64,000 nucleotides of DNA from Candidatus Obscuribacteraceae bacterium. Its GTDB lineage: Bacteria; Cyanobacteriota; Vampirovibrionia; Obscuribacterales; Obscuribacteraceae. Within the stretch, counting starts at the first letter, position 1; each line of letters begins with the position of its first letter. A program made the position numbers and the translations under genes. The notes under the pieces are model-generated. The model had not been told where the DNA came from, did not search any database, and saw only the letters and a program-made list of their open reading frames with translations. Positions 21,552 through 40,619 of this stretch are shown here, one piece after another. The stretch spans positions 224,001 to 288,000 of the forward strand of contig JBGASG010000004.1 of NCBI GenBank assembly GCA_044229845.1, written 5' to 3'.

Positions 21552-21658
21552 AATCTTAGGCAGAATCCCCTGCTTTCGGTACCCCACAATTCAAACTGGC
21601 GGCGCGTATCAAAAGCGCTGTGTGGTGTACCTTGACGCTGATGACCAGGAGTTCCTGC

Positions 21659-24400
21659 ATGCCCAATTCGACCCGCAACTCACGCGGCAATATGCTCGTG
21701 TTGGCTTCGGTCGCTACCCTCGGCATACTGGTGGCGCTTTTGCTCCTGGTTATGAATTTCGGTCGCGTCACCGGCGGGGCAGGTGAGCACCGCACTGCCA
21801 TAGAAGCAGCCGCTCTGGCAGCAGCAACCGACCTGGCTCGGATCGTCATAGACGACCCCAACTACGGCTTCATCTCGCTCGGCGATCACCCGCCGATCGG
21901 CAGACGCACAGTCGCACGCGATGGCGAACCGCTGCCGGTCATGGGCATCAACACAATTCTGGGCACTGCGAGACTCGACTACATCATCGCTCGCGAGATC
22001 AACGATCAGACAATGATCCAGCTCGCCCAGCAAGACATCACCAACGCCAAAGCTGCAGCCACCCGCTTGCAGACAGCTCTCAACGATGCCATCAAACCTG
22101 GTGCGCAAACAGAAGACTTCGACGGCATGCGCGTCACGCCTTACGAAAGAGCTCTGGCGCTTTACGAAAACAATCTCGTAAAAATGACCGGCGGCAAGCT
22201 GGTGACCGGTTCGTTCAAACTCAGCCTTGGCTGGCTGGAAGGCGGTGCTTCCACCGTCACGCCGGTGCCCGATGAAGCGCGCTTGCCGGACGCCGCCAAA
22301 GTGCCTCCAGATAAGCAGTTGGACGGCAACTATAAAGCGTTCGTCAATGTGCCCGCGCATGGCACCAACTTTTATTTCGCCGGCATGGGCAATCGTATTT
22401 CGCTGGTCGACCAGAGCAAATTCAAAGCACCGCAAGCAGAAATCTTTTGTTCGGTGGTGCGAGCCGAAGCGGATCAAACAGTGGAGTCCATCGATGGGCG
22501 CTATCAGGGCGCCGTCACCCATGCCGCCGCCTGCGCACTGCCGCTCGGACACAACGACGTCACTCCAGCCGGTGTGCTCAGTGTCGCCTTCCCGGATGGA
22601 CTCGTGCCCGGCGTCGAACAATTGCGCGACCTGTTTGGCGACAACCAACTCAAATCTCGCACCGGCAAAGCCTGGGTGCCGCAAAACGGTGACTGGCCGC
22701 TCGACCAGGGCAGCAGTTTAACCACCGCCACCAACCTGGCCTCTGGTTCCCCAACCACCACTCAAGCCTGGTCGACCGGCTTTTATCACTGGCTGCGCAC
22801 AGCGCGCACCCGCCCGCGTCCGGCTAGCGTTCTGGCTATGCTTGACAAAGATTTCAATGCCACCATCGTCGATGGCATATCCCAGGTAACGCTCACCTCC
22901 GCAAATCTGATCCCCCCCGCTTACGCAGGCACCATCACGGACGACACGCCTACTGCCATGGTCAATGACCTGCGCATCAACGAGCGCTACAATGCCATTA
23001 TCGCCAACCAACAACCGGCTAAAAACGGCTACTGGCGCTCCGCTCGACAGACTAAGATTCGCCCGCAATTACCGGACAATACTCCATCGGTCAACTGCAA
23101 AAAGACCGGCGAACTGGCATACGCAACAGGCATCATCAATCCGCAAACGATGATCGATTTCCATCAAGCAATCAGCAACACCAATGCAGCCGCCCTCACC
23201 ACTCTTGCTCTTTGCGAACGCATCGAATCCGACATCGCGGCCGGACAACTAACTTTGAGCGCCGGGCAATTGCAAAATCTCAACAACGCTAAGCGCAACG
23301 CTCTCAAGGTTTCTCAGGACAGCAACTACGTGATCAACCACCAGCTCATCCTCACCGCCATGGGACTGAAGCAGATCAATTCCAACTACGAATTGGCCCG
23401 CCAGACGCTGCGCCCCAAACCCAGACCGGCAGCCAACATCAACGAGATACTGACCGGCAACGACTCATCAGGCGGTGATCCCAACGACAAATGGTCGTCT
23501 TCGAATTTTGCTTCTTTCTATGTCGATAACAAGCCTGATCAGGCAGCGGGAGCATTTCTTGTGGACCGCGACGGGTTCGATGGTGCCACGTTCCTGTTTC
23601 GCTTCGACTCGACAGGGCAGGTGGTCGTCAATGACACAGACGGTACGCCTTTCGCCACCGTTCCAGTCTCAGAAAATCAGACCTACTTCGTCAATCTGGA
23701 CGCCATGCAGACCGGCAATCCACAAATACCAGTGACCTGGACTTCTACCATGCGCGATGAGTCAGGCAATATGGGCAATACGCTGGGCGGCAAGCATGCC
23801 GGACAACCCCTGGCCGGCGGCTCCATCGACTGGTGCCAACGCAGCGACCTGGCCGTGCAGGGCGGCAGCGACGGCGTCTCATTCGAATCACCCACTCAGG
23901 GACATCACTCCACCGGGGGTTCCGCAGGCAACCCGGGTGGAGCCAATCCACAGCAAACGCCTCTCGTGAATCAAGTCACGTCAACAGTGGGTCAGCTGTT
24001 CGGGCTGAACGGCACCAACTCCTCCAGCAACAACACACCCTCTCCGGGCGGCAGCGGCACGTGGGGCACCTGGACCGATCAGCAGGGCAATCCGATTAAC
24101 ACCACTATTGGTGGCAAGACCGTGCCCAAATGGTTTATCTGCGGTGGACTGGCAGTCGATTTTCAGCTGCGCGCCCCGCTTATACTAAGACCGGCCAATC
24201 TCAACCCGGGACCCACAGTCAACGTGCGCGAGACTCCCGGCGGCTACGCCGAGGTGACCGGCGTGCGCATGCCCGTGGCCGGGCTGACCGGCGTCAAAGT
24301 GCTGCCGGGAGCACAGAGCGGTCCCACTCGCAAAGTAACGAGCGCGCCTGGCAATCCACCGATGATTGTCGAGCCCGACGTCACCGATGACGTCCAGTAA
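21659..24400 (+). CDS. Large exported protein with TadG/pseudopilin-like N-terminus
   Basis: AGGAG before ATG 21659; RG followed by a hydrophobic helix and AIEAAALAAA motif; long unrecognised ectodomain. Confidence 0.7.
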   Translation: MPNSTRNSRGNMLVLASVATLGILVALLLLVMNFGRVTGGAGEHRTAIEAAALAAATDLARIVIDDPNYGFISLGDHPPIGRRTVARDGEPLPVMGINTILGTARLDYIIAREINDQTMIQLAQQDITNAKAAATRLQTALNDAIKPGAQTEDFDGMRVTPYERALALYENNLVKMTGGKLVTGSFKLSLGWLEGGASTVTPVPDEARLPDAAKVPPDKQLDGNYKAFVNVPAHGTNFYFAGMGNRISLVDQSKFKAPQAEIFCSVVRAEADQTVESIDGRYQGAVTHAAACALPLGHNDVTPAGVLSVAFPDGLVPGVEQLRDLFGDNQLKSRTGKAWVPQNGDWPLDQGSSLTTATNLASGSPTTTQAWSTGFYHWLRTARTRPRPASVLAMLDKDFNATIVDGISQVTLTSANLIPPAYAGTITDDTPTAMVNDLRINERYNAIIANQQPAKNGYWRSARQTKIRPQLPDNTPSVNCKKTGELAYATGIINPQTMIDFHQAISNTNAAALTTLALCERIESDIAAGQLTLSAGQLQNLNNAKRNALKVSQDSNYVINHQLILTAMGLKQINSNYELARQTLRPKPRPAANINEILTGNDSSGGDPNDKWSSSNFASFYVDNKPDQAAGAFLVDRDGFDGATFLFRFDSTGQVVVNDTDGTPFATVPVSENQTYFVNLDAMQTGNPQIPVTWTSTMRDESGNMGNTLGGKHAGQPLAGGSIDWCQRSDLAVQGGSDGVSFESPTQGHHSTGGSAGNPGGANPQQTPLVNQVTSTVGQLFGLNGTNSSSNNTPSPGGSGTWGTWTDQQGNPINTTIGGKTVPKWFICGGLAVDFQLRAPLILRPANLNPGPTVNVRETPGGYAEVTGVRMPVAGLTGVKVLPGAQSGPTRKVTSAPGNPPMIVEPDVTDDVQ

Positions 24401-27114: not shown

Positions 27115-28353
27115 ATGACGCTCCAATTACTCCACGTCTCCGACATTCACTTAGGCTCCGGCGAAACGCACGGGCGCATCAATCCCAAAACGGGGTTGAA
27201 TGTTCGCTTCGAAGATTTCGCGCAAGCGCTTTCCAAGTCGGTCGATTACGCGCTGGAGCATAAAGTAGATGTTTATCTCTTCTCGGGCGACGCATATAAG
27301 AATGCCTCCCCTGAACCCGTTTATCAGAAAGCTTTTGCACGCCAGCTCAAGCGTCTTTCTGATGCCGGCATTCAGACTATATTGCTGGTCGGCAATCATG
27401 ACCAGGTGATGCGCTCGACTGAAAGCCATTCGATGTCGGTCTTCGAGAGCCTGGAGATCGCGAATGTAATCACCATCGATCGGCCGGGACTGCATGTGCT
27501 CGACACGCCGCACGGTAAGCTGCAGGTGATCGGCATCCCGCATGTGACCCGACATCTCCTGATGACGCATGAGAAGTACGCGGATCTTTCAACAGCAGCC
27601 GTCGATAAAGTTCTGGTCAATCACGTCGATGCACTGGTCAGACACTATCTCGACGAGTTGGATGACCAGATCCCCGCAGTCGCCACTGCACACATGATGG
27701 TAGACCGGGCCCGCGCCGGTGCCGAGCAAGATTTGATGATCGGCTATTCGCTGACTTTTCCTCTCGAGATGTTTGTGCATCCAGCCCTCGACTATGTCGC
27801 GCTCGGACATGTGCACGGGCACCAGGTGCTGCGCGCCGGCGAACCGTCCATCGTTTATGCCGGCAGCATGGAACGCGTGGACTTCAGCGAGGAAAACGAA
27901 GACAAAGGTTTTGTGCATGTGCAGTTGACGCGCGGCAATTGTACTTTTCAGTTCGTCTCCATCGCACCACGACGTTTCCTCACAATTGATGCCGATGTCA
28001 CCAACAGCAGCGAGCCCACAGAAGCGTTGCGTCGCCTGATAGCCAAGCAACAACAGCATTTAGATGGGTGCGTTCTGCGTATCCGCTATAAGGTGCTGAC
28101 CGAACAACTGCCCGATATTGACGAAAACGCGCTGCGCGCCGAGTCTGAGGCTGCATTGACCGTCAAATTCAAGCCGGAAGTTGTCGTCAACGAGCGACCC
28201 ACGCGCATGCCCGACTTGCAAGAGAGTGCGGCGGCCAGCCCCCTGACCGCCCTCGATCAGTATCTAGAGCGGTCAGCTCCGGAACGCCGCGAAGACCTGA
28301 TGGCCAGGGCGCGAGCACTGGCTGAGAAACTGCAGGCTGATGCCGCCGAATAG
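27115..28353 (+). CDS. sbcD: SbcD/Mre11 family exonuclease subunit
   Basis: SDIHLG, SGDAY, VGNHD, AH, YVALGHVH and YAGSMERVDFSE motifs; no sbcC adjacent. Confidence 0.92.
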   Translation: MTLQLLHVSDIHLGSGETHGRINPKTGLNVRFEDFAQALSKSVDYALEHKVDVYLFSGDAYKNASPEPVYQKAFARQLKRLSDAGIQTILLVGNHDQVMRSTESHSMSVFESLEIANVITIDRPGLHVLDTPHGKLQVIGIPHVTRHLLMTHEKYADLSTAAVDKVLVNHVDALVRHYLDELDDQIPAVATAHMMVDRARAGAEQDLMIGYSLTFPLEMFVHPALDYVALGHVHGHQVLRAGEPSIVYAGSMERVDFSEENEDKGFVHVQLTRGNCTFQFVSIAPRRFLTIDADVTNSSEPTEALRRLIAKQQQHLDGCVLRIRYKVLTEQLPDIDENALRAESEAALTVKFKPEVVVNERPTRMPDLQESAAASPLTALDQYLERSAPERREDLMARARALAEKLQADAAE

Positions 28354-28541
28354 CGGCAAAACGCAAGTGTGCGTTATCCCGCACGCCGATCTTCGTAGTA
28401 TCCCCATTGTTGACGGCCTGGATTCGCCGTAGATTGGGAATGCTAACAAGCACCCATCCCCCTGCCGTTTATAGCTGTCACCTCCGCCCCGCGCGGACGG
28501 ACTCTCAACGCGTCTTTACCTACCATCCCAGGTTGAATGCA

Positions 28542-29135
28542 ATGACTACTCTTGAACAAGCCGCCCCAGTAGAAAAACAGATCGCTCAAGTTCAGTTGAT
28601 GCCGGACGGTGGTCCCGGACAATCCGACAACGCCGCTCACAACGCAGAGAAGAGTCGCATTCAGGGATCGGCAGGACAAGCGGCAACCGACGCCACAGTC
28701 GGTGCGGACGCCATCACGTTCGGCAAAGCCGGCAGTGACAAAGGTTGGTCGCCGGAAGAGTTCGCCAAAACCGCCATGGGCGTAGCGCTGGAATTGAACA
28801 CTGTCGGCTGGTCCGGTAAGGGCGTACGCATGGCATTAGAGCGCATGGGCGAAGAAGTTGGTCGCGCCAACGCTGCCGATCTCGGTCAGCAACTGTTCGA
28901 CAGCGGCAAGTATGACAAGATTCCGTGGAATCCCAAAGATGCACAGACAGGCGACATTCTGGTTCGTCCGCCGGCTCAAGGCAGCCCGAGCGTCTATGGA
29001 GACATCATGGTAATCACCGGTCGCAACGCCGCGGGCGGACCAATCGGAGTCAACGACCACGTCAATAACAACATTCAGCCTGATAGCAATCGCTTCGAAG
29101 GCAGCTACATCCTGCGCCGTAAGCCGGGCGCTTAG
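28542..29135 (+). CDS. Hypothetical protein with degenerate NlpC/P60/CHAP-like C-terminal domain
   Basis: GWSGKGVRMAL, GDILV and YGDI pattern resembling papain-like amidases; start uncertain. Confidence 0.55.
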   Translation: MTTLEQAAPVEKQIAQVQLMPDGGPGQSDNAAHNAEKSRIQGSAGQAATDATVGADAITFGKAGSDKGWSPEEFAKTAMGVALELNTVGWSGKGVRMALERMGEEVGRANAADLGQQLFDSGKYDKIPWNPKDAQTGDILVRPPAQGSPSVYGDIMVITGRNAAGGPIGVNDHVNNNIQPDSNRFEGSYILRRKPGA

Positions 29136-29202
29136 GATCCAATCAGTCACACGCAATAGTCCAAAGACAGTGTAAAGCAACACATGCACTGATCAAATCA
29201 CC

Positions 29203-29236
29203 AGACGTCGGGCACCTCCACCCGGCGTCTTTTCTT
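29203..29236 (+). terminator. Rho-independent terminator
   Basis: AGACGTCGGG-N8-CCCGGCGTCT followed by TTTCTT, between convergent genes. Confidence 0.6.
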
Positions 29237-29260
29237 CGGCCTCTTTTCTTGGCGTCGTGT

Positions 29261-30172
29261 TCAGCCCGCGCTGGCTTGGCGCAGCAGCTTGCGAGCCGTC
29301 GCTCGCGCAACATCGACTGGAATCGCAAACCCGATGTTCTGCGCGTCACTGCGAATCGCCATGTTGATACCAATCACTTCGCCTTCTATGTTCAATAGCG
29401 GACCACCGGAATTGCCCGGATTGATCGCAGCATCCGTCTGAATCAGCTCGAAATTATTGTTGAGCCCGTTGAGCGAGCGCCCGATCGCACTGACGATGCC
29501 GAGCGTTACGCTGTGCTGCAGTCCCATGGGCGTTCCAATCGCCACTGCATAGTCGCCGGCGCGAATTGAGTTACTGTGGCCGAGCCGCGCCACCGGTAAG
29601 TGCTGCGCGTCGATCTTCACCAGTGCCAAATCCGACACGTTATCGCGTGCCACCACTTGTCCACAGAACGCACGATTGTCGCTGAGGGTCACGCGAATCG
29701 TGTCGGCATTGCGTACTACGTGATTGTTTGTCAGCACGTAACCATCTGATCTAACGACCAGCCCGGAACCCGCTCCGCGAGCTTCAGTAGGTTTGAGCGA
29801 CCGTTTCGACACCGTCGATCCACTCGACCCATTTATCGGACAACCGGGCAAGGGCATGGTGGTGTCTATCGAGACCACGCTAGGCACAGCGGCGGCCGCA
29901 ATGCGAGCAATCGGATTGTGATCAGCTTTTTCAGCGGCGCGAACTTTTGCATCGACAGACACAGTCGAAGAAATCGGCATCGTATTATGTGCCGGCAGCG
30001 TCGCATCAGAAACTGGAATGGTCGTTGCACTGAGCTTTTCATCTGCGCTGCGCATAGACCACCCACCGACAAATGCCAGCGACAGCCCCAACAGCACACA
30101 TGTCAGCTCGACAAAGCGCGGTCGTCCGGGACGGTCGAAATTGTTGCTATCCACTTTGCGAAGGGGGTCCAA
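29261..30172 (-). CDS. HtrA/DegP-like trypsin serine protease without PDZ domain
   Basis: GSG, LTNNHVV, SDLALVKI, IQTDAAINPGNSGGPL and GFAIP motifs; N-terminal TM. Confidence 0.92.
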   Translation of the reverse strand: MDPLRKVDSNNFDRPGRPRFVELTCVLLGLSLAFVGGWSMRSADEKLSATTIPVSDATLPAHNTMPISSTVSVDAKVRAAEKADHNPIARIAAAAVPSVVSIDTTMPLPGCPINGSSGSTVSKRSLKPTEARGAGSGLVVRSDGYVLTNNHVVRNADTIRVTLSDNRAFCGQVVARDNVSDLALVKIDAQHLPVARLGHSNSIRAGDYAVAIGTPMGLQHSVTLGIVSAIGRSLNGLNNNFELIQTDAAINPGNSGGPLLNIEGEVIGINMAIRSDAQNIGFAIPVDVARATARKLLRQASAG

Positions 30173-30254
30173 GATTCACCACCAATGCCCTTTACGTCAC
30201 TGGTAGTCGATTTCAGGCAATGGTTTGTTCCGAACGCAGGTGCTATGGAGTTGC

Positions 30255-30683
30255 TTACTTGGCGGGTGGTTCGCCAAACCTTAGCAAATTGCCGTCGTTG
30301 TCGCAGACGGCGAACTCATGCATTCCCCACTCTTTAATTTCAAGCGGGGTGCGCATCTTGACGCCCTTCTCCGAAAACTCTTTGTGCAGCTCTTCAACAT
30401 TGGCCACGCGTAGATAGCATCCAGAGTTCTCGCAAATCAGCTTTTCTGCGCCGTGCCAGAGATGCAATTCGATGTAGTCGCGTTGCAAGAGCACATAATT
30501 CCCGTAGTCGCCGGTGACGTGAAAACCCAGTTTTTCGACGTAGAACTTCGTCGTTTCTTTAACATCCATAGCCGGCAAAACAGGCACAGCACGAGTCATT
30601 TCCGCCTTGTGTCGGATTTCTTGTTCGGCTGATTCGGTGGGTTCAGTTGTTGTTTGTTGTTGTTCAGTCATTAGCCTGTCCAT
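30255..30683 (-). CDS. VOC/glyoxalase family protein (bleomycin-resistance-like)
   Basis: AVPVLP...FYVEKLGF, CYLRV and WGMHEFAVCDNDGNLLRFGE motifs. Confidence 0.88.
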   Translation of the reverse strand: MDRLMTEQQQTTTEPTESAEQEIRHKAEMTRAVPVLPAMDVKETTKFYVEKLGFHVTGDYGNYVLLQRDYIELHLWHGAEKLICENSGCYLRVANVEELHKEFSEKGVKMRTPLEIKEWGMHEFAVCDNDGNLLRFGEPPAK

Positions 30684-30695
30684 TTGCTCGCTGGC

Positions 30696-32111
30696 TCAGT
30701 GTGGTGGCATCGGAATCCATACAGGCGGTGCGCCGGGGAACTTCATTTTCGTCTCTATGGCCGCATCGTCTGCGTCGTGTGGTTTGAGATAGACGTAATA
30801 GCTGTCATTTCGTTCGATGAGGTCGCTTTTTGGCTGGGCGCTGGGACTGATGAGCATTTCATTGGTGAAACGCACATGCATGTAATAGGGAAGCAGCTGC
30901 TCAAAGTTTTTCACATCGGGCTCGAGCGTATAACGGAAGAGCTTCTCGCCCGTGATCTTCTGAACTTTTTGTGCGCCGGCATCTAGAGGCTTCAGGGGTA
31001 CTTCCTGCCAGCTGGTGCCTACTTGTACGAAGCCTCTGACAGTAGGTCCCATGACATAAACCGGTTTGTCATCACTAGTGGTGTTGCGCAAGAGGACAGT
31101 TAACGTGTATTTGTTGCCTTCGTCCATCGTCAAGTCTTTGACGTCGGCAGAGATTCCGGCGTTGGCCAGATCCTCCAGAGCTCTTTGTTCGGCCGCTTTC
31201 GAATCGACGAGCGATTGTTGATAAGCGGCGACGCCCCAGTGCACACTCCATACCACCGCGAAAATCGGAATCGCCAGCAGGATGAAGCGCCCGATCAGCC
31301 GTTCGATGCCAGCTCCCAGGCTAACTCGCTCGCCGGTGGTGCCGTCAGGAGAGTTTTCGAAGATGCGGCGAATCTTCGCTGCTGCCTCAGGTGATGCGGT
31401 GCGCTCAACTTCATCACCTGCCCCGGCTGCGGTTTGAGACGTGTCCACCGACACGGCGCGCCCACCTTGCATTCGCACAACTGTGTCAGCTCGCGCCGCT
31501 ATGTCCGGATTGTGCGTTACGACAACCAGTGTCAGACCATACGACTTGTGAATACCGATCAAGAGATTGAGGATGTCGCTTTCCGTTTCTTCATCGAGAT
31601 CCGCAGTCGGTTCGTCAGCAAGCAGAATGTCTGGTGAGTTGATCAATGCGCGGGCGATCGCCACACGCCGCTGCTCACCGCCGGACAATTGACCGGGATA
31701 GAATTGTGCGCGCTCGGCCAGCCCGACTTGTTCAAGCAGTCCGCGCGCTCTCGCATACGCTTCCGATTCGCTCAGCGCCCCGCTGATCAGCCCCGGCAAG
31801 GCGACGTTATCAATCGCCCGCAGCGTCGGAAGCAGACTGGCAAACTGAAATACAAATCCGATTTTGCGATTTCTAAGATCAGCGAGGTCTCTATTGTCCA
31901 GCGACCATTGATCGACACCCGCCACCTTAACCACTCCGGATGACGGTCGGCTGATGCCGCCCAGCATCCCCAGGAGAGTAGACTTGCCGGAACCTGAGCG
32001 TCCAACAATAGCAACAAATTGCCCTTGCTCAATCTGCAGGCTAACTTGAGAAACAGCTTCTACAGCGCGTTCGCCACCGAATGTCTTGCTCAACTGATCG
32101 AGGGTCAGCAT
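30696..32111 (-). CDS. LolD/MacB-type ABC ATP-binding protein fused to a TM helix and C-terminal extracytoplasmic domain
   Basis: GRSGSGKST, FVFQF, LSGGEQRR, LADEPT and VVTH motifs; TM LIGRFILLAIPIFAVVW; GGAGG before ATG 32111. Confidence 0.9.
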   Translation of the reverse strand: MLTLDQLSKTFGGERAVEAVSQVSLQIEQGQFVAIVGRSGSGKSTLLGMLGGISRPSSGVVKVAGVDQWSLDNRDLADLRNRKIGFVFQFASLLPTLRAIDNVALPGLISGALSESEAYARARGLLEQVGLAERAQFYPGQLSGGEQRRVAIARALINSPDILLADEPTADLDEETESDILNLLIGIHKSYGLTLVVVTHNPDIAARADTVVRMQGGRAVSVDTSQTAAGAGDEVERTASPEAAAKIRRIFENSPDGTTGERVSLGAGIERLIGRFILLAIPIFAVVWSVHWGVAAYQQSLVDSKAAEQRALEDLANAGISADVKDLTMDEGNKYTLTVLLRNTTSDDKPVYVMGPTVRGFVQVGTSWQEVPLKPLDAGAQKVQKITGEKLFRYTLEPDVKNFEQLLPYYMHVRFTNEMLISPSAQPKSDLIERNDSYYVYLKPHDADDAAIETKMKFPGAPPVWIPMPPH

Positions 32112-32112
32112 G

Positions 32113-33381
32113 TCACTTACCCTCCCCATTGATCAGAACGTATGGCTCTCTGGCGGTTGCTCGCCAGGCGGGCAGCACCGCTCCGAGGGCACCCATGAGA
32201 AACGCTACGCCCAGGCAGCCAACAGCAACGAGGGACATTTCAGCAAGCGAGGGCCAGATGAAATCCACATGCAGAGAGCGCAGCAGATATACCAACGAAT
32301 GCTGAAAGCCCAGCATCAGTGCGCCGCCGATAATCAGTCCCAGCACGCCGCCAATACCGGTGGTCAGTCCGGCTTCAGTCAGCATCATCCAGACTATATT
32401 GCCGCGATGGGCACCGATGGCTTGCAGCACACCAATCTCCCGTCGTCGCTCTTCAATAATTGCTGAGAATAGGAGACTGACCAGAATCATGGATCCCACA
32501 ATCATCATGGCGGCAAAGCCCAGCAGCCCACCCAGCAATGCCGTAATCGTCTGTCTCGTAGACGTCACCAGGCTGGGACCTGTGATTACTTTGATACCTG
32601 GCACTTTGCTGAGCGCAAACCGTACTTGCTCCGGAATTGCTCCGAATGAAAGGCGAATCAGTACAGCCGACACGCGCGACTTGTCGAACTTCGGGGATGG
32701 CGCATTGTCTCCGGTAGCCTCTTTGACGATAGATTCAACGGTTTCGTACGGAGCAAATAACGATTCATCGAAGGGTCCGACCCCGCTTCGTCCGAGCTTT
32801 CCATAGATATTTGCCGGCTTCAGACATGGCTGAATTTCCTGCCCGACGGATTCTATGCGCCGACTACCGGCGATCAGTTCGCCGGGTTTGATGGCACCCG
32901 GTGCGCGCTCGCTCAACCAGTTCATGACTGTGAAATCACGAGCCGGGTCAAATGCAATCAAGTTGGTCTTGCAACCTGGCATGCCTGCCATTACGGGAAC
33001 GCGATATATAGTTTGTGGTGCTACTTGTGCAACGCCGCTCGTACGGGCAATCTCATCCACTTGTTTGAGATCTAAGCCGTCTTCAGTAGGTTGCACAGTC
33101 AGCAAAGCACTGGTGATGTTCACCATCGCCTTGGCAGGGACGACAATCAGGTCTGCGCCCATGCGGGCGAAGCTCTGTTCGGTACTTGCTTCTATGCCTT
33201 TGCCGACCAGAAAGGAAGCGAAGATCGCTGCCGTCCCCAGGGCCACAGCCAGAACCAGCATGCTGGTTCTGGTCGGGCGCCGCAACAGATTTTGGAACGC
33301 CATGCGCGCGAACACTTTGTTAGCCACAGCCCGATGACCATGGCGTGCCTCTGCGACAGCGCGCTTCACTACCGAGACCAT
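32113..33381 (-). CDS. FtsX/MacB/LolE-family ABC permease
   Basis: QNLLRRPTRT + TM1, periplasmic domain, ERRREIGVLQAIGA, GAVLPAWRA. Confidence 0.92.
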   Translation of the reverse strand: MVSVVKRAVAEARHGHRAVANKVFARMAFQNLLRRPTRTSMLVLAVALGTAAIFASFLVGKGIEASTEQSFARMGADLIVVPAKAMVNITSALLTVQPTEDGLDLKQVDEIARTSGVAQVAPQTIYRVPVMAGMPGCKTNLIAFDPARDFTVMNWLSERAPGAIKPGELIAGSRRIESVGQEIQPCLKPANIYGKLGRSGVGPFDESLFAPYETVESIVKEATGDNAPSPKFDKSRVSAVLIRLSFGAIPEQVRFALSKVPGIKVITGPSLVTSTRQTITALLGGLLGFAAMMIVGSMILVSLLFSAIIEERRREIGVLQAIGAHRGNIVWMMLTEAGLTTGIGGVLGLIIGGALMLGFQHSLVYLLRSLHVDFIWPSLAEMSLVAVGCLGVAFLMGALGAVLPAWRATAREPYVLINGEGK

Positions 33382-33389
33382 GGCACCAC

Positions 33390-35126
33390 CTATAGTGTCG
33401 TGCAGCGACTGTTTCTGAGGTGCTCGGCCTTAGTGGGAACGATCACGCAGTCGTGGTGCCCGCCGAAGTTCGGGAGGTAACCATACGGCTCCAGAGTGTC
33501 TTGCCGGAAGATGAACACACCACTTTCATAACGCTGGAATCCGCTGAATATCTGAAAGACAAACTTCCCGTCATACGAGACGGCCATCGTCTGCGCGTCG
33601 TAGCCGATGTCAGGAAACTTGTGCGTGATCTTCCACGTTTTGGTATCAACCACGCAGCAACCGCTGCGCTTCGGATATTTGTCCAGAACGGAGACGAACA
33701 TCTTGCTGCCGTCCATAGAGAAGCACAGGTGGAAGGGACAAGGGAATTCACCGACCCACTTCTCGTCCTTCACATAAGTGATCTTCTTCCAGTTTTTCGG
33801 ATCCGGATCCGACGTATCAAACACAGCCATGTTGTTCTGCTTGATGTTGTTCATCATGGTGAAGAACTTGCCATCGGGCGAGAAACCGGCTTCGTGTCCA
33901 ACGCACTTTATGTCGTCGAACTTCACTTCCCATGTGTCAGGGGCGCCGTGCAGCTTCTTCACTTCAATGTTGCCGGGAGATCCTTCCGGGTTGTGCAAGC
34001 AGGCAACCATTTCCCAGTTGGTACGATCGACGATTACCGCGCACGAAAGCATGCGGATAATCAATGCCGAGTAGCGATTGCCCGGGTGGTGCACAACGGC
34101 ATCAAGACCGGTGAGTTCCTTCACCACCTCTTTGGGCTTATCGCCGGCGCCGGGAAGCCGTCCTGTGTAGACAAAGTTCTCTCCCATCGGCACCATTTCG
34201 TATTTGATCTTGTTTCCTTTGGTTCCTTCGAGATCAAACTTGCCGAGTTCGAGGGGCTGGATTAGTCTCGTTATCCGTAGCGTTCCGCCTTTTGCCCAGA
34301 CATCTTCCAACGGTCCATCCTGATGAGTTCCCTGCCAGTCTGCCTGGAACGCCGCCAGGCAGCTGGTCTTTTTGCCCAGGGAACCGTCGGGCATCAAGGC
34401 CGGTCGATCGAAAAATGCAGCGATGTCTTTCTGCCCGTCCGCCCCGGCAAAGCCGTTGCCATCCGGATAGATTGTCGTGTGAACGCCAAGCCCCATCCCG
34501 GTGGACTCAGCTACGTTCTCTACGAGATTCATTTTCTTGCCGTCAAACCAGACGCGATATATGTTGTTGCCCTGCCCGTATTTGTCGAGCAATCCCTTCT
34601 TCTTAATGTCGGTAGGAATTTCGTAGATCAAAAGGTTGTCGCCGCCCTGAGTGGAGTTGACGAACTCGAAGCCTTTGTATGGATCGGGCGATGGATAAGC
34701 TGCGAGGTGGTGCGAGATCGGGCACGAATCCCCGTAGTTCCAGTAGCTGATCCAGGCTGCGGTTTTCGAAGTTTCAAGATCAACAACGTGCGTGCCGCCG
34801 CCGAGTTTCTCCGGCGTCAAATACATGTATCTGCCAAGATCGGCTTTCGATTGTTTAAACTGCTGCGCATTGATTGACTTGATCGAGTTGGAAACCGTCT
34901 CGACAGCTTTCTCCTTGGCGAACAAATTCAGTCCCCAGCCGAACAGCTTATCGGCTGCAATCGCAGTGGAAGCCGCTCCGCCTGCCACAAGCATGTCGCG
35001 ACGCGACAGCGTCTGCCCGTTCAACAAACGATAAAGCTCGTACTTCACCACTCGATGGAAAGACGGTTTGAACCTCGTCGGATCCGGAAGTTCCTGACGT
35101 TCCGGAAGATCGGGAAAGTCGCTCAC
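33390..35126 (-). CDS. Thiocyanate dehydrogenase-like copper beta-propeller protein, Tat-exported
   Basis: WNYGDSCPISHHLAAYPSPDPYKGFEF, TQGG, GLGVHTTI, DGQKDI, GHEAGFSPDG, FHL and GHHDCVIVP...RNSRCTTL match my recollection of TcDH; SRRDML Tat motif; GTG start with AAGGGG. Confidence 0.88.
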   Translation of the reverse strand: MSDFPDLPERQELPDPTRFKPSFHRVVKYELYRLLNGQTLSRRDMLVAGGAASTAIAADKLFGWGLNLFAKEKAVETVSNSIKSINAQQFKQSKADLGRYMYLTPEKLGGGTHVVDLETSKTAAWISYWNYGDSCPISHHLAAYPSPDPYKGFEFVNSTQGGDNLLIYEIPTDIKKKGLLDKYGQGNNIYRVWFDGKKMNLVENVAESTGMGLGVHTTIYPDGNGFAGADGQKDIAAFFDRPALMPDGSLGKKTSCLAAFQADWQGTHQDGPLEDVWAKGGTLRITRLIQPLELGKFDLEGTKGNKIKYEMVPMGENFVYTGRLPGAGDKPKEVVKELTGLDAVVHHPGNRYSALIIRMLSCAVIVDRTNWEMVACLHNPEGSPGNIEVKKLHGAPDTWEVKFDDIKCVGHEAGFSPDGKFFTMMNNIKQNNMAVFDTSDPDPKNWKKITYVKDEKWVGEFPCPFHLCFSMDGSKMFVSVLDKYPKRSGCCVVDTKTWKITHKFPDIGYDAQTMAVSYDGKFVFQIFSGFQRYESGVFIFRQDTLEPYGYLPNFGGHHDCVIVPTKAEHLRNSRCTTL

Positions 35127-35202
35127 GGCTGCACCCCTTTGCGTGTGTTGGAAGACGGAGACAACGTCTTCTAGAAGGGTGTGATTCTAAGCCATTGGAA
35201 AC

Positions 35203-36501
35203 TTACTCAGATGCAACCGCAGGGCCTTTTCCGTGCTCGTCGAAATTCCACTCTTTGTCCGCTTCGACCGTGCTCAATCCAAGATGCTCGTAAATGAGCC
35301 CAGCGCCGCCCTTGCTGACGAACACCGACAGTCTCGTGTCGTCAATCTCCCAGGTGTAATTCTGGTTGTTGGGGAATATCGATGCATGCGGCTCACCATA
35401 AATTCGGCGTGCCTGCTCAAGCATGTGCTCTACGTCACCTTTCACAAAAGCCTGCACCGAGCGAAGTCTGAAAACCCCTTCGTCCATGCAAAACTTCGCT
35501 GTCGGCTGCCCTCGCTCTATATAGGTGACGCCCGGCCACGGCGGTTGCGCATTGGCAAGCTGAAACTCCCTTGTTATGCCAGGGTAGCGTGAGGCGAGTT
35601 CGATCCACCTGATTTCTTGTGCATCCATGATGTCGCGCGTGCGCCGCGCCGATGCACCCAGCGGCACCTCGCCAAAAGCGACACCGTCGTGTTGTTCGTA
35701 ATCGTGCGGACATTCGTTGATCATTGCCGCATCTCCGCGGACGACCCAGCTCGGCGAGCTGGCACTGCATACGGTGGCATCGGTCCGCAGCGCCACTGCT
35801 TCCCATTCGCCAGCGGCCGCCACCAACTGCTGGACGTAGAGATTGCGTAATGGTTTGTATTCCCAGACCACCTCAGCGGTGTTGGCATCGATGGTCCGCA
35901 GAGTGACGTCTGTACATCCCTTGCACCAACGACTGACGGACCCCTCCTGTTGCGGCTTACCGAAATCATAGGTGAATGACCAGATAGCATGAGAGATGTC
36001 GCCTCGAATCAATCCGGAAATTTTGTAGAGGCGAAACACGTTTGCGTCATTGACGAAGTGCTCGCGAGGAGGCGCGGTCCATTGACACGTGCCGCCGGTC
36101 GGTGATGGGAAATAAGGCAAGGTCACTTCTCTGAGAACGCGCGGAAAGGGCACGTTCTCCACCGGCATCCAGCCGGTTTCGTGCACGCCGGACATTACCT
36201 TGGTCTGCGCCGCCGAACACCCCAACTGAATTCCAATAACTCGAATGCCGTCGTAGTTTTCGTCGTAGTCATCGGTGCGAGTCTTCTGCATCGCACTGTC
36301 GGTCGACAGGCGTGCCTTTCGCAACAGCTCCCGGCGCCAGGGCGGCGTGTTTTCATCGACCGCAAACGTTTGCGGATTGCGCACTGCCGCCGCCACCGAT
36401 TTAGCTGATAGGTCGGCATCGCCGGCACTGCAAGCGCCAAGCAATGACGTCGAAATGACAAACGCGAGCAAGTAGATGCCCGGGCGCAAGTTCCACGGCA
36501 T
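35203..36501 (-). CDS. Hypothetical lipoprotein with two tandem homologous domains
   Basis: Lipobox LGA|C; internal duplication (YDGIRVIGIQLG..FRLYKI..GD vs HDGVAFGEVPLG..FRLRSV..GD). Confidence 0.65.
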   Translation of the reverse strand: MPWNLRPGIYLLAFVISTSLLGACSAGDADLSAKSVAAAVRNPQTFAVDENTPPWRRELLRKARLSTDSAMQKTRTDDYDENYDGIRVIGIQLGCSAAQTKVMSGVHETGWMPVENVPFPRVLREVTLPYFPSPTGGTCQWTAPPREHFVNDANVFRLYKISGLIRGDISHAIWSFTYDFGKPQQEGSVSRWCKGCTDVTLRTIDANTAEVVWEYKPLRNLYVQQLVAAAGEWEAVALRTDATVCSASSPSWVVRGDAAMINECPHDYEQHDGVAFGEVPLGASARRTRDIMDAQEIRWIELASRYPGITREFQLANAQPPWPGVTYIERGQPTAKFCMDEGVFRLRSVQAFVKGDVEHMLEQARRIYGEPHASIFPNNQNYTWEIDDTRLSVFVSKGGAGLIYEHLGLSTVEADKEWNFDEHGKGPAVASE

Positions 36502-36648
36502 AAGCAATTCCTGACTGTCGGTCTAGTTAGTAAAGCAACGCGAGAAAGTGCATTGCACTGCCAGATTACAGGAAGCCGCCACATCGGGGACAGCACATCA
36601 TCCCGACAGACTTCCAGTGTTTCCCCCAGGTTTCAGGTGCAAGCAACC

Positions 36649-38028
36649 TCAGTGCGGCAGTCCGAATGCGTAGTAGACCAGACAGAGAAGCGCCAGCACA
36701 TAAGCTCCCGACTTCACTTCTCGAACCCTGCCGACCAACAGTTTGAACAGTGGGTGCAGGATCAGTCCAGCGGTCAATCCGTTGGCGATGTTGTAGCTGA
36801 AAATCATGACGATGATGGTGGCAAAAGCCGGCACAGCCTCCGACAAGTCGTCGAAGTCGACTTTGCGAATCGACTGCAACATCAATAATCCGACTGCCAT
36901 CAATGCTGGTGCATAGGCAAATTTCAAACTCTGCAGCGGCTCGAAAAGCGGAATGAAAAATATCGAGAGGAGAAACAAGAGCCCCACCACAACGGCGCAC
37001 AAACCGGTGCGCGCCCCTTCCTGAATGCCTGCAGCCGACTCGATGAAAGCGCCGCTGGTCGATGATCCAATCAACGCGCTCAACATGCAGGAAGCCGAAT
37101 CGACAACCATCGGTTTTTCAATCTCAGGAAAGTTTCCTTCCTCATCCAGCATGTTGGCGGCAGAACCCAGCCCCACCAGCGTTCCCAACGTGTCGAGGAA
37201 AGACATCAGAAACAGCGTCAGCAATATCGGCAAAAAGGAAACTTGCAAAACGCCTGCAATGTCCAGCTTTCCGGCAATCGGCTCTAATGTGTAGACACCC
37301 TTGAATGGCAGGTCGACCACCGCAGTTGGTGCCTTCGCGTAACCAAGCAAAACGCCGATTACCGCATTAACCACAATGCCGATTAAGATTGCGCCCCGCA
37401 CTTTCTTGTAGAGCAGCACGCTCATCAGCAAGAAACCAAAAACGGCCAGCAAAACTTCGGGGCTGTGGAAATTGCCGATCTTGAGCGGTACATCCGGCGC
37501 CCGCAGAAATTCGCTGTTGGGCAACATCAATGCGGCAGCAGGCATGCCGGCAGCGGCACTGGTGACGATGCCGGTTTCGTACAGTCCGATAAAAGTGAGA
37601 AACAAGCCGATGCCCGCGCCAAAAGAATGCTTCATGCTTTGCGAAACGGCATTAGCAAGCCATGGTCGCAGTCGCAATACCGAGAGCAAAAGAAACAGAA
37701 CACCGCTCACGAACACCGCACCCAGTCGCTGCTGCCAGCTGATGTGCATGGCAGCAAGCCCGAAAGCGATGAAGGCGTTCTCCCCCATATATGGTGCCAC
37801 CGCAATCGGACGATTGGCATAGAATCCCATCAGCAAACAACCAAATACCGCGGTGCAAATGGTTGCCACCGTCGACGGTCCGACCGGGATGCCGGCAAAA
37901 CTGAGAATGGCCGGATTGACAACGATGATGTACGCCATGGTGACGAACGTCGTCAGACCGCCCAGAATCTCTGTTTTGACGGTGGAGTTGTTGACGGAAA
38001 TCTTGAACAGCTTCTCGAGGAGATTCAC
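36649..38028 (-). CDS. NCS2/AzgA-family purine permease
   Basis: TEILGGLTTFVTMAYIIVVNP, APYMGENAF, FLDTLGTL and IESAAGIQEGARTG motifs. Confidence 0.94.
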   Translation of the reverse strand: MNLLEKLFKISVNNSTVKTEILGGLTTFVTMAYIIVVNPAILSFAGIPVGPSTVATICTAVFGCLLMGFYANRPIAVAPYMGENAFIAFGLAAMHISWQQRLGAVFVSGVLFLLLSVLRLRPWLANAVSQSMKHSFGAGIGLFLTFIGLYETGIVTSAAAGMPAAALMLPNSEFLRAPDVPLKIGNFHSPEVLLAVFGFLLMSVLLYKKVRGAILIGIVVNAVIGVLLGYAKAPTAVVDLPFKGVYTLEPIAGKLDIAGVLQVSFLPILLTLFLMSFLDTLGTLVGLGSAANMLDEEGNFPEIEKPMVVDSASCMLSALIGSSTSGAFIESAAGIQEGARTGLCAVVVGLLFLLSIFFIPLFEPLQSLKFAYAPALMAVGLLMLQSIRKVDFDDLSEAVPAFATIIVMIFSYNIANGLTAGLILHPLFKLLVGRVREVKSGAYVLALLCLVYYAFGLPH

Positions 38029-38465
38029 CGCAAGTTCATCTCGAGCCGATCCAGAGCCTGATTGATGATGCTCAGCAACTCGTCCAGTTCTTCCGGCACG
38101 TTCAAAGCTTCGTAGATGGCTTCGGCTGCATTGGTGTCTGATTCAGGCTGGGACGCCCAGTAGACACAGGAAGCCGCGCGAGCTTGACTGAAATACACAG
38201 CCGATTGTTCGGGGTCGGCTTCGCGAGTCTGGAAGTATTGTTCGTCCAACGAATCGGCAACGCCACGCAGCCAATCGCGATCTTCGTCGCTGAATTCCTG
38301 ACGCATGACCAGCAACTCAAAAGACTGCATAATCGCCAGGTCTTCGATTCCGCTCACACGCACCGCATACTCGCAGGCATGCAAAACAGCCGCCCAACGT
38401 GCATCCGAAGTTGCTATCTGCAACTTTTCCCAGAGCCTTGGTTCGCTTTGCTGTAGCCTGTTCAT
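38025..38465 (-). CDS. Hypothetical all-helical protein
   Basis: 146-aa ORF overlapping the permease start by 4 nt; LDEQYF, FSQARAA and AAEAIYEA segments. Confidence 0.7.
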   Translation of the reverse strand: MNRLQQSEPRLWEKLQIATSDARWAAVLHACEYAVRVSGIEDLAIMQSFELLVMRQEFSDEDRDWLRGVADSLDEQYFQTREADPEQSAVYFSQARAASCVYWASQPESDTNAAEAIYEALNVPEELDELLSIINQALDRLEMNLR

Positions 38466-38491
38466 GATTGTGGGCGCGTTAGTGCTGATTA

Positions 38492-39586
38492 CTAACCAAT
38501 GATCTCAGCCGCAATTTCCGTGCTGCCTGGAACAGCGGCAATTCTATCAACATTCTGACTATCTACGGCCGGAACTTGAAAATCATGTTGCTGCGCCTGT
38601 TCGGCAAGCGTCCGCTGCGCCTGTGATTGCTGCGCTTTCCAGCGTTTGAAAGCCGCACCCAGTGTCTCAGCGACTACATAAGTGGGGCGAGCCCGCACTT
38701 CATCGAGCACCTTGGACAGATAGGCGGCGATGCACCCCATGCAAAGGATCTGCAATCCGGCGAAAGCGCCCACAGAGAGGGCAAGAGCGATATTGTCAAA
38801 AGCCGGTCTGCCGGCCTGGGTCTGCAAAACCACCCAACTCACCAGGGCGAAAACGCAAACCGCCAGTAGCGTCGAGCCGATGGTGGAAATTAGATAGAGG
38901 GGCGAGCTGCTGAAGCCAAGCAGTCCATCCAGCGCCAGGGTGAAGAGCTTGCGGAGGGTGTAAGTGCTTTCTCCTACTTCGCGCGCACCGCGGTCGATAG
39001 GAATACCGATCTGTTTGAAGCCGAGCCAGGGAATCTGTCCGCGCAAGAAGCGGGTCTTCTCCGGCATGCTCTGCAGCGCTTGCACCACTTTGCGGTCTAT
39101 CAAGCGAAAATCGCCTGTGTCCCACGGAATGCGCACCGACGAGAATGCGCCGAGAACACGATAGAAAAGAAAGGCCGAAAACCGCTTCATGAACCGATCG
39201 CGGCGAGCCAGACGTTGCGCATAGACGACATCGTAGCCTTCCTGCCACTTCTGCACCATTTCCGGTATCAGCTCGGGCGGGTCTTGCAGATCGGAGTCGA
39301 TGTTGACGACGGCAGCGCCTTCGGCATAATCGAAGCCGGCAGAGATGGCGGCTTGCTGCCCGAAGTTGCGAGACAGCACAACCAGTTTGACATGGTCTAC
39401 CTGGCGAGCCAGCTGGACCAGCGCATCGCTGGTTTTGTCGCGACTGCCATCATTGACGAAAATTACTTCGTAAGACAGGCGCAGCGGGGACAGCACCTTC
39501 CAGAGGCGCTCCAGCATTGCTACTAAATTGCGCGGGTCCTCGTTGTAGACCGCAACGACAATGGACAGGTCAACAGTCATAACCAA
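38492..39586 (-). CDS. GT2 polyprenyl-phosphate glycosyltransferase (GtrB/YkoT-like)
   Basis: VNDGSRD, SRNFGQQAA, DSDLQDPPELI, DTGDFRL and RPTYVV motifs; two C-terminal TMs. Confidence 0.93.
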   Translation of the reverse strand: MVMTVDLSIVVAVYNEDPRNLVAMLERLWKVLSPLRLSYEVIFVNDGSRDKTSDALVQLARQVDHVKLVVLSRNFGQQAAISAGFDYAEGAAVVNIDSDLQDPPELIPEMVQKWQEGYDVVYAQRLARRDRFMKRFSAFLFYRVLGAFSSVRIPWDTGDFRLIDRKVVQALQSMPEKTRFLRGQIPWLGFKQIGIPIDRGAREVGESTYTLRKLFTLALDGLLGFSSSPLYLISTIGSTLLAVCVFALVSWVVLQTQAGRPAFDNIALALSVGAFAGLQILCMGCIAAYLSKVLDEVRARPTYVVAETLGAAFKRWKAQQSQAQRTLAEQAQQHDFQVPAVDSQNVDRIAAVPGSTEIAAEIIG

Positions 39587-39680
39587 TCTGGTCTTAACAT
39601 CTCAACAACCCCGCCATTGTCCTTGGTGATCGAGACAAAGATCAACATGACAATCCTAATTCTTAGACTAACGTTATCCG

Positions 39681-40619
39681 CTAAGTGAGAACTTTTTCGA
39701 GTGACTTGATCCAGCCCCACGTGTCGCGCAGTCCGTCCTTCAGATCGACTTGCGGCTCCCACTGCAAATAAGTTTTCGCGCGGGTGATATCGAGCACGTT
39801 GGCCGGCACATCCAGCGCGCGCGCCGGCGTGTATTGCACCTCCACCGGTACGTCCACGACTTCTTTGATGCGGGCGATGATGTCGTTAAGTGTGTACCCG
39901 ATGCCCGATCCGATGTTAAAAACGCGCGGCTCGTCAACCTTTGGCTTGTATTCGCCGGCTTTGACCAGCGCCCGGGCGGCATCTCTTATATATAGATAAT
40001 CTCTGACAGCACCACCGTCACCCCAGATAGTGATCGGTTTGCCCTGGGCGACATTGCCCAGAAACACGCCGACGGCGCCCTGCTTCGCATTCGGGTTCTG
40101 CCCCTCTCCATAAGGATTGGAAATGCGCGCCACCACAAACTCCAGTCCATGCAGGTGGTGGAAAAGACTGAGGTACTTCTCGATGGTCAGCTTGCTGATT
40201 CCATAAGAGCAGATGGGATCAGTCGGGTGCTCTTCTTTGATGGGCGTCGTTTGCGGTACACCATATATGGTGCCACCGGAAGAGATGAAGATCACTTTCT
40301 TGACGGCTGAAGCTACGCAGCATTGCAAGAGTTGCAGCGTATCTATGACGTTGGAACGCACGTCGTAGGTCGGGTCTTCATTGGAAGTCTGCGGCAAGGT
40401 CGTATAAGCGAGATGATAAATCCAGTCCATGCCGCGCACCGCTTCTTCCACTTCGCCGTGATTGGCGAAATCGCCGGTGAGGTATTCGACGCGAGCATCG
40501 GGCTGCCGGTAGCGGCTGGGATATCGGTCGAAGACGCGCACGCTGTGTCCAGCTTGCAACAACTCATCTACGAGATTGATGCCGATAAATCCGTTGCCGC
40601 CAATGACCAGCGCTTTCAT
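39681..40619 (-). CDS. NAD-dependent nucleotide-sugar epimerase/dehydratase
   Basis: GGNGFIG, SSGGTIYG, YGISK and NPYG motifs; GAGGTG before ATG 40619. Confidence 0.94.
   Translation of the reverse strand: MKALVIGGNGFIGINLVDELLQAGHSVRVFDRYPSRYRQPDARVEYLTGDFANHGEVEEAVRGMDWIYHLAYTTLPQTSNEDPTYDVRSNVIDTLQLLQCCVASAVKKVIFISSGGTIYGVPQTTPIKEEHPTDPICSYGISKLTIEKYLSLFHHLHGLEFVVARISNPYGEGQNPNAKQGAVGVFLGNVAQGKPITIWGDGGAVRDYLYIRDAARALVKAGEYKPKVDEPRVFNIGSGIGYTLNDIIARIKEVVDVPVEVQYTPARALDVPANVLDITRAKTYLQWEPQVDLKDGLRDTWGWIKSLEKVLT

Follow-up and report, generated by a model that had tools for sequence, protein, structure and literature searches.

Thiocyanate dehydrogenase (TcDH; EC 1.8.2.7) oxidises SCN- to cyanate and S0 with cytochrome c as acceptor and has an unusual three-copper centre that is known from a few sulfur oxidisers. 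According to PMC9456337, the substrate is held with its nitrogen on Cu1 and its sulfur bridging Cu2 and Cu3 while the carbon is attacked by water, and the sulfur is afterwards oxidised by Cu2 or Cu3. The closest described systems are those of Pelomicrobium methylotrophicum (PDB 8Q9X and 8Z75), Thioalkalivibrio paradoxus (PDB 5F75) and the Thiohalobacter type (BAZ92945.1, P0517 in our numbering). In Thioalkalivibrio, genes for ABC permeases and ATPases lie directly downstream of tcdh as two pairs accompanied by separate hypothetical genes (PMC5328954), and these ABC genes are co-induced by thiocyanate, their function being not known according to PMC5328954 and PMC5744179. In the Thiohalobacter operon, a gene for a thioredoxin-like protein accompanies Cus genes (PMC6504805), and the isolated Thiohalobacter protein had no in vitro activity according to PMC6934394. 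A TcDH-like protein of Afipia has also been described, in the portions of PMC8061750 and the accompanying preprint that were consulted, with no statement of the residue at position 482.

That position matters here because a natural protein has been found with Gln in place of the expected His. The same change has been made in the laboratory, as recorded in PDB titles ('His 482 replaced by Gln' for 6SJI, from Thioalkalivibrio, and 'H447Q' for 8YU5/8YU6, from Pelomicrobium). No description of natural Gln-type TcDH homologs came up in the literature searched, which lay outside the primary TcDH papers and the later Pelomicrobium structural papers; the choice of Gln for the laboratory mutants suggests that specialists are aware of the natural variant.

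The enzyme gene and its active-site residues

The window analysed here, a stretch of 64,000 nucleotides, carries on its minus strand (33390..35126) a gene that runs from a GTG start at 35126 down to 33390 in an uninterrupted frame with no internal stop and encodes a protein of 578 aa. Its homology to TcDH cannot be due to chance, since E values of 2.4e-118 to 4.4e-139 were obtained against the PDB, where the phmmer matches were TcDH chains only (9 sequences, E 4e-139 to 2e-116). The protein is 47% identical to Pelomicrobium TcDH over 490 columns, 41% identical to Thioalkalivibrio TcDH, and 31% is the figure for the Thiohalobacter type. A fold of the TcDH kind had been expected by an earlier reading made from the sequence alone, and superposition bears this out: the AlphaFold2 model of residues 90-578 (pLDDT 90.4) matches Pelomicrobium TcDH with a Foldseek TM of 0.90 and an rmsd of 2.1 Å and Thioalkalivibrio TcDH with a TM of 0.89, the best 20 Foldseek rows are all TcDH (TM 0.89-0.90), and the next fold follows only at E 1e-11. 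With homology to the seven-bladed TcDH beta-propeller over its whole length, and with PDB searches, alignments and model in agreement, the protein is assigned to the TcDH structural family and, within it, to the Gln/Glu/Met branch described below.

Most of the active site is recognisable in the alignment with the full-length 5F75 chain (548 aa), in which K107, H139/H140, Q160 and H216 correspond to TcDH K103, H135/H136, Q156 and H206, while E310, D342, H411, F465/H466 and H557/H558 correspond to E288, D314, H381, F436/H437 and H527/H528, and D559 and R574 to D529 and R544. The residues named by the sequence-only reading (all of these but D559 and R574) stand where that reading had placed them, the equivalences that it gave were correct, and the twin-arginine motif that it saw is present as S41-R-R-D-M-L46 (34989..35006, minus strand). 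The published list of TcDH active-site residues (K103, H135, H136, Q156, H206, E288, D314, H381, H437, H482, H528, D529 and R544; PMC6504805, Fig. 4 legend) is retained at 12 of 13 positions, the sole difference being His482. Here the Thioalkalivibrio motif DMHTLA reads DAQTMA, and the residue opposite His482, which is also opposite His447 of the Pelomicrobium enzyme, is Q512, encoded by CAG at 33591..33593 on the minus strand; both alignments give Gln and not His, just as had been claimed. Judged by its sequence, the protein is thus a member of the TcDH structural family that lacks one defining residue of EC 1.8.2.7, and the name thiocyanate dehydrogenase should be withheld from it because His482 belongs to the definition of that enzyme.

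The idea of a remodelled site was sound as far as the Q512 swap goes, but it was incomplete, having missed two further changes. E412 (33891..33893, minus strand) aligns with TcDH Gln382, which adjoins the ligand His381, and M314 (34185..34187, minus strand) aligns with Gly292, which follows Pro291. The protein therefore resembles Pelomicrobium TcDH in its twin-arginine motif and in all listed site residues but one, and differs from it at three positions: His447 is replaced by Gln, the Gln that follows the His381 equivalent by Glu, and the Gly that comes after the loop Pro by Met. Thiohalobacter-type TcDH likewise has Glu after His381 but, unlike the enzyme here, keeps both His482 and Gly292. 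TatC was found by family search in the host genome, which is 88% complete, and the product is likely exported to the periplasm through the Tat pathway, as its signal motif predicts.

The Q512 codon is covered without differences by a contig from an RNA library (33422-33632) and by a second contig (33115-33646) whose run kind is unrecorded and which may come from the source sample. The RNA-library contigs over the gene are sparse, may be DNA and are not taken as evidence of expression.

A branch with Gln, Glu and Met

The sequence-only reading had described the exchange in this one protein; alignments and trees show that it is not peculiar to it. The nearest-homolog alignment, made up of the query and the 120 best of 591 matches, has Gln at the His482 position in each of its 121 rows, and this Gln is directly preceded by Cys in 112 of the 121, the window protein having Ala. 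A larger pool was seeded with the window protein, a divergent member and Pelomicrobium TcDH (P0244), the searches with the last two adding His types, and came to 498 sequences, 460 of them near full length and 430 unique. Gln is found at position 482 in 343 of these 430, or in 342 natural sequences once the laboratory mutant is set aside; the ratio of Gln to His in the pool is no census, because Gln types supplied two of its three seeds. At TcDH positions 482/382/292, the combinations are Q/E/M in 320, H/Q/G in 86 and Q/E/G in 21, with Q/K/G, H/E/G and Q/Q/G occurring once each. Natural Gln482 is thus paired with Glu382 in 341 of 342 cases, and Met292 is found in 320 of the 342 natural Gln types and in none of the 87 His types. 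The single Q/Q/G row is the Pelomicrobium laboratory mutant, in which only the Gln was introduced, and the mutants 6SJI and 8YU5/8YU6 are no copy of the natural site because there Gln is accompanied by Glu382 and mostly by Met292. Glu382 was considered as the sole decisive compensating change and rejected, since Thiohalobacter TcDH has it together with His482.

In two quick trees built from a hand-picked subset with the three signature columns removed, the Q/E/M sequences form one branch, with an SH-aLRT of 96 on 39 rows and of 93 after the two longest outgroups were dropped, and the Pelomicrobium-like His types form a separate branch (99 and 95 in the same trees). The Gln types may or may not share a single origin, which has support 0 at the base of the second of these trees, and FastTree rooting nests the His enzymes within the Gln types with a support of only 0.38. 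Every complete copy among 79 genome loci has Gln, and a DNA motif that permits either His or Gln at the codon recovered 56 metagenome loci, all 56 with Gln, although these are not independent because they comprise only 11 distinct local peptides from one alphaproteobacterial-type lineage. On these sequences, the His-to-Gln swap is a fixed mark of a large branch and not a peculiarity of the source genome. Q160, E310, F465, P313 and R574, which are not metal ligands, are nearly invariant. In ten pairs of related Gln-type genes, none of which includes the window's own gene, dN/dS was 0.008-0.062 in nine and saturated in the tenth; strong purifying selection acts on these genes.

Among the carriers are Obscuribacterales, planctomycetes, verrucomicrobia, soil alphaproteobacteria, methanotrophs and picocyanobacteria, and the titles of the 79 genome loci name Obscuribacterales, Planctomycetota, Verrucomicrobia, Methylococcaceae and Alphaproteobacteria. 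Distribution is patchy, with the gene in 9 of 61 genomes searched, the window's included, and picocyanobacterial members (under the names Cyanobium and Vulcanococcus) come from 6 of the 401 genomes searched in their family. The host of the window is likely an Obscuribacterales itself, to judge from its nearest named homologs. Cultured carriers include Singulisphaera and Methylocella tundrae, the latter with the gene on a plasmid; the Methylocella tundrae protein WP_134492792.1 is a distant Gln-type member.

The gathered sequences show further variety. Ten Gln-type members are long, at 719-750 aa, with some 180 aa extra (P0076, P0083, P0086, P0094-P0096, P0099, P0102, P0109 and P0118), and other Gln-type members have a PF01527 helix-turn-helix match. 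A cyanobacterial homolog (L141:9361-11034, minus strand) reads DVES, with Glu opposite His482, and has Ser at 292; the genes for its permease and ATPase lie about 5 kb downstream, past several small inserted toxin-antitoxin-like ORFs. In a His-type subgroup (P0315-P0333, one of them named Nitrospirota), the His527 equivalent is often Ser, Ala or Pro. Three distant TcDH-fold proteins (P0392, P0475 and P0477; 25-34% identity) keep most histidines and are changed at Lys103, His527, Asp529 or Arg544, and they represent additional unstudied branches.

The ABC cassette and its surroundings

Eight bases downstream of the enzyme gene and on the same strand lies a gene for a MacB/FtsX-type ABC permease of 422 aa (32113..33381), followed, with an overlap of 17 bases, by one for a LolD-like ABC ATPase of 477 aa (30696..32129) that likely has a membrane segment in addition to a C-terminal domain. 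The arrangement is like that of the Thioalkalivibrio operon (PMC5328954), except that a single ABC pair, to which an extra domain is fused, stands here in place of two pairs with separate hypothetical genes. The fused part (30696..31232, minus strand) is an Ig-like domain with an invariant Y-x-H and a terminal M-P-x-H, here ending MPPH, from which we call it the MPPH domain. It is single-copy in the host genome and has no Pfam family match, and its model (pLDDT 94.6) is an Ig-like sandwich of a generic type. A fold search, judged against the known copper chaperone folds CopC and PCuAC, returned generic Ig-like matches only among solved structures, the best at Z 8.5 (TMEM106B) and none over background; Atlas feature matches were all below 0.9, and a search of viral contigs with a picocyanobacterial query found no relative. 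On the Methylocella tundrae plasmid, a gene of its own, placed after that for the ATPase, encodes the MPPH domain.

Among the 59 of 143 loci with full flanks (at least 3.5 kb either side), the MPPH domain is encoded on the same strand in 56, the permease is present in 55 and a CxC redoxin adjoins in 19; the ABC pair and the CxC redoxin are the only flank genes that recur across distant taxa. The redoxin-like protein (L023:7055-7879, with similar proteins in about 40 loci) is membrane-anchored and has C-x-C and a C-terminal GC(P/A) motif; its gene adjoins that of the enzyme in planctomycetes and verrucomicrobia, and the host genome has no close counterpart. Two Methylococcaceae copies (L020 and L022) and one from Tautonia (L068) have flanks without ABC genes, and L020 lies near genes that by sequence resemble nif accessory genes. 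We infer that the MacB-type ABC pair and the MPPH domain may form a dedicated maturation or copper-loading machine for the enzyme, because the genes are linked and Met and His residues are conserved, which is the sole basis for this role. The ABC partners are no pointer to a new reaction, because they are common to true TcDH operons (PMC5328954 and PMC5744179).

Unlike the Thioalkalivibrio cluster, the cassette is without copCD, tatA, fccAB, a cytochrome and a sigma-54 regulator, and copCD, fccAB and the sigma-54 regulator are not among the scanned ORFs that flank it. The sequence-only reading had noted a window free of sulfur-oxidation genes, and this holds, again unlike Thioalkalivibrio, for the 88%-complete host genome, where family searches gave no match to SoxY, FccB or DsrA, nor to CopC or cyanase. 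The same genome has three matches over cut-off to heme-copper oxidase subunit I and also c-type cytochrome motifs. Across 40 carrier genomes, many of them incomplete and some probably the same genome counted twice, SoxY was found in 6 (absent in 34) and cyanase in 11 (absent in 29).

The neighbourhood offers little in the way of a substrate: no neighbour that would reveal one is conserved across the flanks of the loci, and no Rfam riboswitch was found in eight loci or in positions 28000-40000 of the window. Neither a purine-type permease upstream (36649-38028) nor a 434-aa ORF (35203-36507, minus strand), both considered for clues to the substrate, is among the genes that recur in other loci. 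That ORF and one of 926 aa (21620-24400, plus strand) have no Pfam match. In the six picocyanobacterial loci (L140 and L147-L151), the cassette lies in varied flanks; narB and moaA are near one and absent from the other five. Two of the six have a multicopper oxidase nearby, two have DUF411, one has an AcrB-family RND transporter, and SMR transporters with a metallo-beta-lactamase-fold gene are near one picocyanobacterial locus.

Candidate reactions and their significance

We take Cu3 in TcDH to be held by His437 and His482, and the H482Q mutant has reportedly lost activity. If both points are right, the sulfur-oxidising half of the site is altered in the Gln types and the half that activates the C≡N group is kept. 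The protein likely binds copper and is likely an exported copper enzyme that acts on a small molecule other than thiocyanate. The sequence-only reading, partly borne out by these results, took it to be probably a Cu oxidoreductase and not a true SCN- dehydrogenase; it may instead be hydrolytic, and may yet oxidise thiocyanate. More specifically, and still tentatively, we favour a periplasmic copper enzyme in which the machinery for water attack would be kept and the sulfur-binding copper site rebuilt for a reaction other than thiocyanate oxidation. With the residues that activate the C≡N group and the attacking water retained, loss of His482 would weaken the redox Cu3 or leave it re-liganded by His466 with Gln512 and perhaps Met314 or Glu412, and the Lys/His/Glu relay would remain along with Cu1 and Cu2. 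The outcome would be a two-copper or altered three-copper centre that hydrates a small C≡N compound in place of oxidising thiocyanate to elemental sulfur. That the reaction is hydration or non-oxidative cleavage of such a compound is a proposal in which we have a little less than even confidence, made because the C≡N half is kept and sulfur-oxidation genes are scarce in carriers. Candidate substrates are cyanate, cyanamide-type compounds, cyanide, or thiocyanate itself if split to cyanate and sulfide, and the purpose may be nitrogen scavenging or detoxification.

It is somewhat unlikely, though a serious alternative, that the protein is still a thiocyanate dehydrogenase, with its third copper on His466 together with Gln512, Met314 or Glu412, and that the branch is a common low-flux form that detoxifies or scavenges trace thiocyanate in soil and water. 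The retention of 12 of 13 site residues would fit this, as would ABC partners of the same type as in true TcDH operons, and the enzyme is nearer to Pelomicrobium TcDH (47%) than to Thiohalobacter TcDH (31%). The co-fixed Met and Glu could serve as compensating ligands, and the host's heme-copper oxidases and c-type cytochrome motifs offer candidates to take up the electrons. All of the characterised or proteome-supported enzymes compared, however, retain His482, the cassette is without copCD, fccAB and sigma-54 genes, and in most of the carriers searched neither product could be used by way of SoxY or cyanase, which were not found. The argument from cyanase is weakened because this enzyme is uncommon in true TcDH hosts as well, according to PMC6934394.

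Less probable again is a periplasmic copper oxidoreductase or copper-handling protein with no C≡N chemistry at all, which would act on a thiol, a thiourea-type or other organosulfur substrate, or would buffer copper. The CxC redoxin gene beside 19 of the 59 full-flank loci and the multicopper oxidase, DUF411 and RND transporter genes near some picocyanobacterial loci would suit such a role, but the metal-related genes among these neighbours fail to recur across distant taxa, and the near invariance of the non-ligand residues Q160, E310, F465, P313 and R574 fits a conserved pocket for a small substrate. A sequencing error or a dead, drifting TcDH copy, for which the patchy presence of the gene and the sparse RNA-library contigs might speak, is excluded by the fixation of Gln in 342 natural sequences and a dN/dS below 0.07, the frames being intact and the codon matched in two other contigs.

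Returning to the favoured hydration or cleavage of a C≡N compound, its broadest form, which we put forward as a possibility that we would not yet expect to hold in full, is that the form of the TcDH family commonest in the environment is no thiocyanate dehydrogenase but an undescribed periplasmic copper enzyme with a rebuilt His/Gln/Met centre. Bacteria of soil, fresh water and the sea, among them picocyanobacteria, would use it to turn over, without cyanase, a C≡N compound that is ubiquitous, for example cyanate, cyanamide or cyanide, and an undescribed copper-loading machine driven by ABC proteins would mature it. The natural triple change offers a direct test of the role of the third copper that single laboratory mutants cannot give, and the question can be put to the test because cultured carriers exist. 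The Gln branch outnumbers the His form among the sequences gathered (with two of three seeds of the Gln type), and several of its members have been labelled 'thiocyanate desulfurase' by JGI. If Gln types do carry out another reaction, such metagenome annotations would be wrong, and a common copper enzyme would be awaiting its function.
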